This document shows positions 4,403 through 55,868 of a stretch of DNA of 64,000 nt, piece after piece (the first letter of the stretch is position 1; each line of letters begins with the position of its first letter). The stretch lies in NCBI RefSeq assembly GCF_054482595.1, contig NZ_CM137008.1; one strand, given 5' to 3'. Position numbers and translations under genes: made by a program. Under the pieces are notes generated by a model. The model saw nothing but the letters and a program-made list of their open reading frames with translations, did not search any database and had not been told where the DNA came from.

Positions 4403-4488
4403 TGTAGGCAGGATAAGGCGTTTACGCCGCATCCGGCATTTGAGCAGGATGCCTGATGCGACGCTGATAGCGTCTTATCAGGCCTACA
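4403..4488. repeat. REP/BIME element pair
   Basis: Convergent GCCGGATGCGGCGTAAACGCCTTATCC / GCCTGATAAGACG...CATCAGGC palindromic units between cpxA and yiiM. Confidence 0.8.
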
Positions 4489-10258: not shown

Positions 10259-13271
<3,013 letters not shown>

Positions 13272-13276
13272 ACACT

Positions 13277-13600
13277 GCCGGATGCGGCGCGAGCGCCTTA
13301 TCCGGCCTACAGGTCGGCAACAGTTGTAGGCCTGATAAGACGCGACAGCGTCGCATCAGGCATTGATTGCCGGATACGGCACGAGTGCCTTATCCGGCCT
13401 ACAGGTCGGCAATAGTTGTAGGCCTGATAAGACGCGACAGCGTCGCATCAGGCATTGATTGCCGGATGCGGCACGAGCGCCTTATCCGGCCTACAGGTCG
13501 GCAATAGTTGTAGGCCTGATAAGACGCGACAGCGTCGCATCAGGCATTGATTGCCGGATGCGGCACGAGCGCCTTATCCGGCCTACGGGTCGTGCATCCG
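13277..13600. repeat. Tandem BIME array: about 3.5 copies of a 92-bp unit, each holding a convergent REP pair
   Basis: Unit starts (GCCGGAT(G/A)CGGC...) at 13277, 13369, 13461 and 13553; near-identical copies, few substitutions. Confidence 0.9.
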
Positions 13601-13629
13601 ACAACACCGAATTTACAGGAACACAGAAC

Positions 13630-14454
13630 ATGCAAAATATTACCCAGTCCTGGTTTGTCCAGGGAATGATCAAAGCCACCACCGACGCCTGGCTAAAAGG
13701 CTGGGACGAGCGCAACGGCGGCAACCTGACGCTGCGCCTGGATGACGCCGATATCGCGCTTTATCACGACAACTTCCACCCACAACCGCGCTATATTCCG
13801 CTCAGCCAGCCCATGCCTTTACTGGCAAATACGCCGTTTATTGTCACCGGCTCCGGCAAATTCTTCCGTAACGTCCAGCTTGATCCTGCAGCTAACTTAG
13901 GCGTCGTAAAAGTCGACAGCGACGGCGCGGGCTACCATATTCTCTGGGGGTTAACCAACGAAGCCGTTCCAACTTCTGAACTTCCGGCTCACTTTCTCTC
14001 CCACTGCGAGCGTATTAAAGCCACCAACGGTAAAGATCGGGTGATCATGCACTGCCATGCCACCAACCTGATCGCCCTCACCTATGTACTGGAAAACGAC
14101 ACCGCGGTCTTCACTCGCCAACTGTGGGAAGGCAGCACCGAGTGTCTGGTGGTATTCCCGGATGGCGTTGGCATTCTGCCGTGGATGGTGCCCGGCACGG
14201 ACGAAATCGGCCAGGCAACTGCCCACGAGATGCAAAAACATTCGCTGGTGTTGTGGCCCTTCCACGGTGTGTTCGGTTCCGGACCGACGCTGGATGAAAC
14301 ATTCGGTTTAATCGACACCGCAGAAAAATCAGCGGAAGTGTTAGTGAAGGTGTATTCGATGGGCGGCATGAAACAGACCATCAGCCGTGAAGAGTTGATA
14401 GCGCTCGGCAAGCGCTTCGGCGTTACACCACTAGCCAGTGCGCTGGCGCTGTAA
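13630..14454 (+). CDS. rhaD: Rhamnulose-1-phosphate aldolase
   Basis: 274 aa from [25 protein letters not shown]...; class II aldolase. The track ORF (from 13459) is an artefactual N-extension through the REP array. Confidence 0.95.
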
Positions 14455-14463
14455 GGAGCAAAC

Positions 14464-14778
14464 ATGATCCGCAAAGCCTTTGTCATGCAGGTTAACCCCG
14501 ACGCTCACGAAGAGTATCAGCGTCGGCATAACCCCATCTGGCCGGAACTGGAAGCAGTGTTGAAATCTCACGGTGCGCATAACTACGCCATTTACCTCGA
14601 CAAAGCGCGTAATCTGCTGTTTGCCACGGTAGAGATTGAATCTGAAGAGCGCTGGAATGCGGTTGCCAGTACTGATGTTTGCCAACGTTGGTGGAAATAT
14701 ATGACCGACGTCATGCCCGCGAACCCGGATAACAGCCCGGTGAGTAGCGAACTGCAAGAAGTGTTTTACCTGCCGTAA
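14464..14778 (+). CDS. rhaM: L-rhamnose mutarotase
   Basis: 104 aa, [30 protein letters not shown]... Confidence 0.92.
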
Positions 14779-14787
14779 TTGCCTAAT

Positions 14788-14818
14788 GTGCCGGAGACGC
14801 CTCCGGCACAATATTTTT
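14788..14818 (+). terminator. Rho-independent terminator after rhaM
   Basis: Perfect 9-bp stem GTGCCGGAG-acgc-CTCCGGCAC followed by a T-rich tract. Confidence 0.75.
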
Positions 14819-15090
14819 AATTTCGATTTGAAAAATAAACATATTACACCTTCAGTTAATATATCCCGGTAACTTATATTTCCCCGATGCATTGTGAGTA
14901 AATCACAAAAATAATGAATAACTCATTAATGATTCATGTGGTTTATTTAAATAACCATTATGTGCATTACTCCGCAAATCTGACCTTTCACTCTGTCTCA
15001 AATTGTCATTGTTTACCGACATATCGCCTCTCATCACTTAATCGCTCCACCATTACAATTGATTAAAATATATTTCATGGAGTCCGATTA

Positions 15091-15537
15091 ATGGCAGCTC
15101 TTACTGCAAGCTGTATTGACCTGAATATTCAGGGCAATGGCGCTTATTCCATTCTGAAGCAGTTGGCGACAATGGCGTTACAAAACGGTTTTATCACCGA
15201 CTCACACCAATTCCTGCAAACCCTGCTGCTGCGCGAAAAAATGCACTCTACTGGATTTGGTTCCGGCATCGCCGTGCCGCACGGTAAAAGCGCCTGCGTT
15301 AAACAACCGTTCGTGTTATTCGCCCGCAAAGCGCAGGCTATTGACTGGAAAGCCAGCGATGGCGAAGACGTCAATTGCTGGATCTGCCTCGGCGTGCCGC
15401 AAAGCGGCGAAGAGGATCAGGTCAAAATCATCGGTACACTGTGTCGCAAAATTATCCACCAGGATTTTATTCACCAACTGCGACGAGGCGACGCCGACCA
15501 GGTGTTTGCCTTGTTAAATCAAACCCTCAGCTCATAA
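15091..15537 (+). CDS. frvA: PTS fructose-like EIIA component
   Basis: 148 aa; PTS EIIA-2 fold with conserved His motif (GIAVPHG). Confidence 0.9.
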   Translation: MAALTASCIDLNIQGNGAYSILKQLATMALQNGFITDSHQFLQTLLLREKMHSTGFGSGIAVPHGKSACVKQPFVLFARKAQAIDWKASDGEDVNCWICLGVPQSGEEDQVKIIGTLCRKIIHQDFIHQLRRGDADQVFALLNQTLSS

Positions 15538-19812: not shown

Positions 19813-19882
19813 GTCGGATGCACCGCTAACACGGCTTAACGACGTTTAGGTCGGATAAGGCGTTTACGCCGCATCCGACCTT
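19813..19882. repeat. REP element(s)
   Basis: GGTCGGATAAGGCGTTTACGCCGCATCCGACC palindromic unit between convergent frvR and yiiG. Confidence 0.75.
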
Positions 19883-27848: not shown

Positions 27849-27947
27849 GCCTGATGCGCTGCGCTTATCAGCCCTACCAATAAACTTCAATATATTGAAT
27901 TTGCATGACTTTGTAGGCCGGATAAGGCGTTCACGCCGCATCCGGCA
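27849..27947. repeat. REP/BIME pair
   Basis: GCCTGATGCGCTGCGCTTATCAGCCCTAC and TGTAGGCCGGATAAGGCGTTCACGCCGCATCCGGCA after fdhE. Confidence 0.8.
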
Positions 27948-45910: not shown

Positions 45911-45986
<76 letters not shown>

Positions 45987-55779: not shown

Positions 55780-55868
55780 GCCGGATGCGGCGTGAACGCC
55801 TTATCCGGCCTACAAAAGCAATATTTTCAACAGGTTTTGTAGGCCTGATAAGCGTAGCGCATCAGGCA
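55780..55868. repeat. REP/BIME pair
   Basis: GCCGGATGCGGCGTGAACGCCTTATCCGGCCTACA and TGTAGGCCTGATAAGCGTAGCGCATCAGGCA. Confidence 0.8.

Follow-up and report, generated by a model that had tools for sequence, protein, structure and literature searches.

The tandem repeats between rhaA and rhaD in the window, a 64-kb stretch of Escherichia coli chromosome, are a seven-REP allele, Y(Z2 Y)3 with a period of 92 bp, of the known BIME-2 element REP299. Since it is already recorded as REP299 in EcoCyc and in the BIME-2 table of Sutormin 2018, the element itself is a known, genuine, well-described and hypervariable repeat. Comparison of strains indicates that its copy number changes faster than point substitutions accumulate, in whole 92-bp steps, as judged from alignments in which identical flanks enclose 1, 3, 7 or 9 REPs. 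By analogy with a characterized REP array elsewhere in the genome, the rha array may act as a dual stabiliser and attenuator of the rhaBADM mRNA, a reading that we consider about evenly balanced, and any such effect would probably grow with REP number.

The test stretch was 100% identical to strain XH990, which has a finished chromosome. Around the array, rhaR and rhaS are encoded on the minus strand, while rhaB (10546-12015), rhaA (L-rhamnose isomerase, 12012-13271), rhaD (rhamnulose-1-phosphate aldolase, 274 aa, 13630-14454) and rhaM (L-rhamnose mutarotase, 14464-14778) follow one another on the plus strand, placing rhaA upstream of the array and both rhaD and rhaM 3' of it. The rha genes matched NCBIfam equivalog models far above the cut-offs, with TIGR01748 scoring 826 bits for rhaA, NF002963 474 bits for rhaD and TIGR02625 192 bits for rhaM. 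RefSeq annotation agreed, including the rhaD start and an rhaA of 1260 nt in XH990. The rhaA stop is the TAA at 13269-13271, and the 358-bp rhaA-rhaD spacer is exactly 13272-13629.

A scan for GC-rich hairpins with a directly adjoining U-tract found no intrinsic terminator in 13272-13629, and a scan of the spacer for promoter-like sites found none above chance; an intrinsic terminator and an internal promoter in the spacer were both rejected on these grounds. The sole terminator-like site that was detected in 12800-15200 was a hairpin followed by a T-run on the plus strand just after rhaM (14787-14820; 14787-14810 in the terminator scan), which is likely the operon end. Because the spacer carries neither a terminator nor a promoter above chance and the terminator-like site follows rhaM, the array should be transcribed within the rhaBADM message.

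Tandem Repeats Finder (TRF) reported a period of 92 with 3.4 copies, 96% matches, no indels and a score of 599 at 13276-13592, and a separate repeat search returned three in-register 133-nt copies at a spacing of 92 with 95-96% identity. A sequence-only reading of this DNA had described a tandem array of 92-bp BIME units inside the rhaBAD operon, with each unit containing two convergent REPs, and TRF together with REP pattern matching bore out both the array (in an operon that extends to rhaM) and the inverted arrangement. The same reading had counted 3.5 near-identical copies across 13272-13629. The tandem, near-identical nature of the copies stood, as did the limits of the spacer, but the count is about 3.4 and the repeat proper begins at 13276 rather than 13272. 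On realignment the full 92-bp units differed at just 2-4 of 92 positions (pairwise identity 95.7-97.8%), in line with their description as near-identical. Whereas 100 shuffles gave an expectation of 0.00 matches to the REP motif pattern, the window itself contained 10, six of them inside the array. Six more REPs lie elsewhere in the 64-kb window, and in E. coli genomes the test stretch used as a query had a median of 9 matching sites each.

Seven REPs make up the array, four of Y type on the plus strand alternating with three of Z2 type on the minus strand, all wholly extragenic between the rhaA stop and the rhaD start. A 5-nt gap, ACACT (13272-13276), leads from the rhaA stop to the stem of the first REP, Y1 (34 nt, 13277-13310), which matched the motif pattern with 0 mismatches; the gap is invariant, and together with the first Y REP it is common to all E. 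coli alleles examined. The 15-nt linker AGGTCGGCAACAGTT (13311-13325), on the CTAC/GTAG side of the REPs, then joins Y1 to Z-a (36 nt, 13326-13361), and the 7-nt linker ATTGATT (13362-13368), on the side opposite CTAC/GTAG, joins Z-a to Y2 (13369-13402). Y2 is a variant of the Y type (GATACGG...GTGCC) whose inner stem contains a compensatory A-T pair. The pattern continues with the 15-nt linker AGGTCGGCAATAGTT (13403-13417), Z-b (13418-13453), a 7-nt linker that carries a TTG at 13459 (13454-13460), Y3 (13461-13494), a 15-nt linker (13495-13509), Z-c (13510-13545), a 7-nt linker (13546-13552) and the terminal Y4 (13553-13586), which is present in every allele including the single-REP one. Across the array the 15-nt linker reads AGGTCGGCAAYAGTT and the 7-nt linker ATTGATT. 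A unique 43-nt rhaD leader (13587-13629, plus strand) completes the spacer; its AGGA at 13617-13620 resembles a Shine-Dalgarno motif and precedes the rhaD ATG by 9 nt, and its final ~15 nt are invariant in the E. coli alleles examined.

All seven REPs are imperfect palindromes, 34 or 36 nt long, whose stems are interrupted by a bulge or mismatch, and all of them end in GGCCTAC (complement GTAGGCC), which places the GTAG/CTAC tetranucleotide at the foot of the stem. Folded singly as RNA in the mRNA sense, the REPs gave predicted energies of -19.5 to -21.3 kcal/mol each (Y1 -21.3 and Z-a -20.5 kcal/mol), and the whole spacer folded at -200 kcal/mol with z = -10.9.

Two BIME classes have been distinguished: BIME-1 pairs Y with Z1 around a long conserved L linker that often has an IHF site and occurs as a single copy, whereas BIME-2 pairs Y with Z2 through a short linker in tandem copies that vary in number among strains (Ton-Hoang 2012). 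In the rha array, Y units (GCCGGATGCGGC...CGCCTTATCCGGCCTAC), of which there are four, alternate in inverted orientation with three Z units of 36 nt (GCCTGATGCGACGCTGTCGCGTCTTATCAGGCCTAC); the linkers measure 15 and 7 nt, none is an L linker, and the tandem repeat amounts to 3.4 units in the window, with strains ranging from 1 to 11 REPs. The Z units were assigned to Z2 by what we take to be the Z1 and Z2 consensus sequences. The 36-nt Z pattern of the array also matches the units of REP325, an array whose Z units have been published as Z2, with 2-4 mismatches each. By every feature that can be read from sequence, the array is almost certainly BIME-2. It resembles BIME-1 (RIB/RIP) in being built of extragenic inverted REP pairs, but has Z2-type units rather than Z1, 7/15-nt linkers rather than a long L linker with an IHF site, and tandem rather than single-copy organization.

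This classification bears on the proposal that such arrays bind IHF, a statement that conflates BIME-1 with BIME-2 and is unsupported here. A search of the array for the strict IHF consensus WATCAANNNNTTR found no match. Relaxing the search to one mismatch gave a 13-mer near-site, AATCAATGCCTGA, at all three tail-to-tail junctions, where it is the minus strand of the 7-nt linker plus adjoining REP bases. This recurrence speaks for an array of IHF sites, but one-mismatch matches occur at a background of ~1.1 per kb across the window, the three in the array are copies of a single sequence, and the documented IHF site lies in the BIME-1 L linker (Ton-Hoang 2012), which the array lacks. We therefore rejected IHF binding as a supported feature and regard an IHF-binding site array as highly improbable.

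The orthologous element in strain K-12 occupies a 450-bp spacer with nine REPs and has the same linkers and anchors. It shares with the window array its locus, the ACACT and 43-nt leader anchors, the Y/Z2 REPs, the 15/7-nt linkers and the 92-bp period, whereas the window has seven REPs within a 358-bp spacer, other core variants of the Y REP, and flank differences from the K-12 locus at 34 of 658 compared positions. EcoCyc names the K-12 element REP299a-i, and in a survey of stress-responsive REP regions REP299 was the sole one of eight inside an operon (rhaBAD); it lies no more than 15 nt from the upstream gene and is a predicted RAYT-associated REPIN (Nielsen & Hansen 2024). The K-12 element is also listed as the 401-bp BIME-2 'rhaA>-rhaD>' in Table DS3 of Sutormin 2018, where Topo-seq assigned it 4 gyrase cleavage sites with ciprofloxacin, 2 with rifampicin plus ciprofloxacin, 1 with microcin B17 and 0 with oxolinic acid. 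The same study found that BIME-2 elements as a class are enriched for gyrase cleavage sites with a preference for Y REPs, that the signal is independent of transcription and rises with rifampicin, and that only a subset of BIME-2 elements is cleaved (Sutormin 2018). Gyrase action, which the sequence-only reading had also attributed to such arrays, thus has published support from four Topo-seq conditions in the nine-REP orthologue; cleavage in vivo was shown there by others, and may extend to the seven-REP allele.

To sample allele diversity, a query made only of the flanks (400 bp of rhaA and 400 bp of rhaD) was matched to 5,362 of 5,426 complete E. coli genomes, and spacer lengths were counted in two systematic samples of the match ranking comprising 109 genomes, from a database biased towards clinical and laboratory strains. 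Spacers of 82 or 92 bp were found in 33 of the 109 genomes, 174 or 176 bp in 20, 241 bp in 15, 266 or 276 bp in 15, 358 bp in two, 450 or 460 bp in 23 and 542 bp in one. Parsing of representatives gave an allele series Y(Z2 Y)n with n = 0 to 5, corresponding to 1, 3, 5, 7, 9 or 11 REPs, in which the anchors on both sides of the array are fixed and the rhaD leader occurs in 43-nt and 53-nt variants. Single-REP alleles were the commonest class (~30% of the sample), while the seven-REP allele was uncommon, at ~2% of the sample and up to ~5-7% judged from the ranking of matches to the test stretch. The expectation that copy number would vary among strains was therefore confirmed over a range of 1 to 11 REPs. 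An assembly artefact was rejected: many complete genomes assembled independently show these discrete sizes, and over the test stretch the window matches a finished chromosome at 100% identity.

Among six strains whose 380 + 380 bp of flanking sequence showed 0 differences, the REP counts were 1, 3, 7, 7, 9 and 9. The two seven-REP alleles on this shared haplotype differ in linker and internal unit order, so they arose by independent deletions from a nine-REP form. The window allele represents a third independent origin of the seven-REP state, because its haplotype differs at 37 of 760 positions from the four strains with K-12-identical flanks and its Y cores are different. Other alleles have been disrupted or replaced. 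In strain IAI39 the loop of the lone Y REP is the exact insertion point of IS1397, an element with known specificity for REPs. In the 241-bp allele a different GC-rich inverted repeat stands in place of everything beyond the first Y REP; this element is itself dispersed, with a median of 16 sites per genome, and an Rfam search assigned it to no family.

One genome per species with RhaD gave 80 Enterobacteriaceae loci; both ends of the rhaA-rhaD spacer could be placed in 76, where its length had a median of 114.5 nt and a range of 15 to 466. Defining a strong local hairpin as one at or below -12 kcal/mol in 50 nt, we found one in the spacers of 72 of the 76 species, and 56 had a hairpin at or below -20 kcal/mol; the first stable stem lay no more than 15 nt from the rhaA stop in 56 of the 72 (median 7 nt). 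Four of the 76 species had hairpin-free short spacers of 15-47 nt. The elements at this junction belong to different families, among them genus-specific REPs of Citrobacter, Kluyvera, Enterobacter and Klebsiella/Raoultella types and box-type elements of the form 'CCCTCTCCC...GGGAGAGGG'. Superficieibacter electus resembles E. coli in having amplified a REP unit at the junction, in a 466-nt spacer, but its unit is of another REP family with a 49-nt period and 8.2 copies all in the same direct orientation, which marks it as a separate, differently built amplification. In other genera the spacer that follows rhaD had a hairpin at or below -12 kcal/mol in 63 of 79 cases and at or below -20 kcal/mol in 18 of 79, and is not a clean intra-operon control because it probably contains the operon-end terminator and the next genes differ.

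This cross-genus pattern fits either selection for a hairpin at the junction or a tolerant landing site for palindromic repeats. The exact structure of the array seems to be under no strong constraint, given the alleles of 1 to 11 REPs, the IS1397 insertion and the four hairpin-free species. A more far-reaching possibility is that the junction is a selected 'decoupling' point in the rhamnose operon of Enterobacteriaceae at which unrelated palindromes were independently recruited, with the E. coli BIME-2 acting as a fast-mutating, contingency-style dial that tunes RhaD/RhaM against RhaB/RhaA in 92-bp steps, over the range of 1 to 11 REPs and among haplotypes that are otherwise identical; we consider this quite unlikely. 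The families that would have been recruited include genus-specific REPs, box-type inverted repeats and both direct and alternating tandem arrays.

How the array might affect expression is suggested by REP325, a 12-REP Y/Z2 array between yjdM and yjdN in E. coli K-12, whose deletion changed the yjdM/yjdN mRNA ratio from ~35 to ~1 (Harris 2026). REP325 stabilises the upstream mRNA, limits read-through and yields a ladder of hairpin-ended species; termination is partly Rho-dependent, for the full array only, and fragments with 2-4 hairpins are insensitive to bicyclomycin (Harris 2026). Genome-wide, tandem gene pairs separated by REPs are biased to upstream expression, with REP effects that depend on context (Harris 2026). 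Both REP325 (the naRNA1-6 array) and the rha array consist of tandem alternating Y and Z2 REPs inside an operon. They differ in period (100 versus 92), REP number (12 versus 7) and linkers (13 nt plus a C-rich 17 nt in REP325 versus 7 nt plus 15 nt in rha), and the orientation of REP325 to transcription is opposite to that of the rha array, so that rha mRNA carries the anti-naRNA4 sense. The C-rich 17-nt linker of REP325 could be a Rho loading site; the rha linkers are G/A-rich, and the array has no region with C above G (maximum C-G excess 0.04) and hence no C-rich, G-poor segment.

Applied to rha, the stabiliser/attenuator model, with which the position and hairpins of the array agree, would have the array co-transcribed with rhaBADM from the rhaB promoter, and the untranslated spacer of 358 nt would form seven hairpins, each worth about -20 kcal/mol. 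On the upstream side the hairpins would shield the rhaBA segment by stopping 3'->5' exonucleases. They would also cause some termination or decay ahead of rhaD-rhaM, an effect that is probably weak and varies with REP number, and the two actions together would bias expression to rhaB/rhaA at the expense of rhaD/rhaM. With only 5 nt between the rhaA stop and the first stem, terminating rhaA ribosomes would have to melt that stem, which may also damp RhaA synthesis. Units of 92 bp (Z2+Y) would be gained and lost by slippage, unequal recombination or the activity of TnpA-REP (RAYT). REP hairpins between cistrons are a classic case of differential expression in sugar operons: intercistronic REP stabilisers such as that of malE-malF are reportedly known from work by Higgins in 1982, Newbury in 1987 and Khemici and Carpousis in 2004. 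Elements of the malE-malF type have one or two REPs and a demonstrated effect, whereas rha has a seven-REP tandem array and an effect proposed by analogy. A strong drop in RhaD relative to RhaB would risk build-up of rhamnulose-1-phosphate, so any attenuation is expected to be modest. Our even weighting of the model reflects the mismatch with REP325 in orientation and linkers, the context dependence of REP effects, the wide range of alleles, and a literature search that found nothing usable on the rhaA:rhaD transcript or protein ratio or on a REP effect at rha; the text matches to 'REP' in PMC2254391 were words such as 'repressor'.

The main rival to the stabiliser/attenuator model treats the array as a selfish or neutral REPIN/BIME, propagated by RAYT (TnpA-REP) and slippage at a tolerant site, with copy number drifting neutrally for rha expression. 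The spread from 1 to 11 REPs, with 1, 3, 7 and 9 on identical flanks, the origin of the seven-REP state at least three separate times, the tolerated IS1397 insertion in IAI39, the replacement of the array by an unrelated dispersed repeat in ~14% of sampled strains and the four species without any hairpin are all consistent with such drift, as are the general variability of tandem copy number in BIME-2 (Ton-Hoang 2012) and the prediction of REP299 as a RAYT-associated REPIN (Nielsen & Hansen 2024). Drift accounts less readily for a strong palindrome kept in 72 of 76 species despite differing element families, for a first stem usually no more than 15 nt from the rhaA stop, or for the genome-wide upstream bias of REP-separated tandem gene pairs (Harris 2026), and we regard neutrality as a serious but somewhat doubtful explanation. 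The placement of the first stem could instead point to translational damping of RhaA, in which the stop-proximal Y REP stalls ribosomes independently of copy number by the Liang-Rudd-Deutscher mechanism. REPs no more than 15 nt from a stop codon are reported to stall ribosomes (Liang 2015, as cited in later work), and REP299 is said to fall within this limit (Nielsen & Hansen 2024). The stem begins 5 nt past the rhaA TAA, the gap and first Y REP occur in every E. coli allele examined, and the 56 of 72 species with a stem within 15 nt of the stop extend the pattern; closeness to stop codons is nevertheless general to REP placement and may reflect insertion preference, which leaves damping an unlikely though credible account.

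At the DNA level, the array could serve as a strong, transcription-independent gyrase site, providing a point of topological relief or an insulator in a strongly inducible operon, a role that is compatible with either the RNA-level model or the neutral view. The cleavage sites in the K-12 orthologue under ciprofloxacin (4), rifampicin plus ciprofloxacin (2) and microcin (1), together with the class enrichment, Y REP preference and rifampicin-raised signal of BIME-2, argue for it (Sutormin 2018). Those data concern binding rather than any consequence for rha or for chromosome topology, cleavage affects only a subset of BIME-2 elements (Sutormin 2018), and single-REP alleles, at ~30% of the sample, are the commonest class, so we rate a functional gyrase site as tentative and on the whole unlikely. 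Far less probable still is a role for the array in supplying naRNA4-like nucleoid-associated RNA that works with HU in chromosome condensation. The Rfam family RF02564 (naRNA4) matched the minus strand three times, once per Z2-Y pair, at 72.8-73.3 bits against a gathering threshold of 59.5, and the complement of naRNA4 is reported to be active too (Qian 2015). The best-scoring sense is, however, antisense to the operon, with no promoter found for it, and the plus (mRNA) strand scored 50.8-53 bits, below the gathering threshold. These antisense matches merely mirror shared Y/Z2 REP sequence, and REP325 gave no measurable nucleoid compaction and no REP-REP contacts attributable to REP325/naRNA4, contradicting the nucleoid role (Harris 2026); the naRNA4 reading was therefore rejected.

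As an element the array is ordinary: descriptions of REP/BIME-2 arrays go back to the 1980s-90s, and genome-wide surveys of gyrase and of REPs already include it. What makes it useful above all is that nature supplies alleles with 1, 3, 5, 7, 9 and 11 REPs, in several cases between the same flanks, within a cleanly inducible operon where the effects of REP number and orientation on mRNA stability and read-through, which are still debated, are directly testable. The rhaBAD promoter and locus are also widely used in expression systems and strain engineering, and host strains differ at the array.

The repeats are an annotation hazard as well. The longest ORF ending at the rhaD stop (13459-14454) starts at the TTG in a 7-nt linker and encodes 331 aa rather than 274 aa, so that longest-ORF callers add a spurious in-frame extension of 57 codons (13459-13629, plus strand) to the N-terminus of rhaD, just as the sequence-only reading had warned, whereas RefSeq/PGAP starts rhaD at the ATG at 13630. 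PGAP does occasionally call pseudogenes inside the repeats, as in strain FG92-1, where a frameshifted pseudo 'hypothetical protein' CDS was called inside the BIME.

Within the array of the window (13277-13586), the Y REPs show a compensatory change in their inner stem. The first Y unit carries GGCG...CGCC and the second carries GGCA...TGCC, with A-T in place of G-C, while the third and fourth share a half-changed form, GGCA...CGCC, that leaves an A.C mismatch. The motif GGCA..AGTGCC is common to all internal Y units of alleles with the K-12 haplotype, and this suggests that a single variant gave rise to the internal units by amplification. The units can also differ in type, as the 176-bp allele of E. 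coli WCHEC115106 (421-596 of locus L006) has the order Y> <Z Z>: its terminal position, where a Y REP is normal, has instead a plus-strand, Z-like REP that departs from the Z pattern at 2 positions. This arrangement indicates REP-type conversion or recombination inside the array.

The rhaA and rhaD flanks of the window (12872-14029) belong to an uncommon haplotype, with at least 99% identity found in only 16-17 of 5,426 complete E. coli genomes. Compared with the K-12 flank haplotype, 37 of 760 positions are changed (about 4.9%), a high divergence for core genes of this species; against the K-12 locus itself the count is 34 of 658. Of the same 5,426 genomes, 64 went unmatched when queried with the rhaA/rhaD flanks, and 21 others gave split or partial matches; in these genomes the rha locus may have been lost or disrupted, or may carry further IS insertions.

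A 241-bp spacer occurs in ~14% of sampled E. coli and consists of one Y REP followed by a GC-rich inverted-repeat element of ~175 nt (CCCTCACCCCGGCCCTCTCCC...GGGAGAGGGTTAGGGTGA), located at about 466-640 of the E. coli 2011C-4251 locus (spacer 421-661). This element is a dispersed repeat found at a median of 16 places per genome; an Rfam search with it matched no family, and it may be boxC-like. The same type of element fills the rhaA-rhaD spacer of Enterobacter, Pseudocitrobacter, Leclercia and others. At the Superficieibacter electus junction (1077-1481 of L039), 8.2 copies of a 49-nt REP unit (92% matches) form a tandem amplification independent of the one in E. coli and of a different architecture: units there are direct and in the same orientation, whereas those of the E. 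coli array alternate. In E. coli IAI39, the rhaA-rhaD spacer has a single Y REP, and an IS1397-family IS3 element lies precisely in its loop (1484-3000 of L012; IS CDS 1558-2906). The insertion splits the REP into GCCGGATGCGGCGCGAG and CGCCTTATCCGGCCTAC and extends the rhaA-to-rhaD distance to 1.5 kb.

A frameshifted, incomplete pseudo 'hypothetical protein' called by PGAP in E. coli FG92-1 (423-556 of L095) lies wholly within a 3-REP BIME and is an artefact caused by the repeat. Downstream of rhaD, most other Enterobacteriaceae (L014-L092) have an additional ORF (329 or 383 aa) that starts ~60-220 nt 3' of the gene, and rhaM, where present, lies ~1.2 kb downstream. E. coli lacks this intervening gene, since its rhaM follows rhaD after only 9 nt.

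Outside the rha array, the window contains one inverted pair, a Y REP on the minus strand (4404-4437) and a Z REP on the plus strand (4451-4487) that form a small BIME (4404-4487), as well as four single Y-type REPs at 19846-19879 (degenerate, 3 mismatches), 27913-27946, 45911-45944 and 55780-55813.
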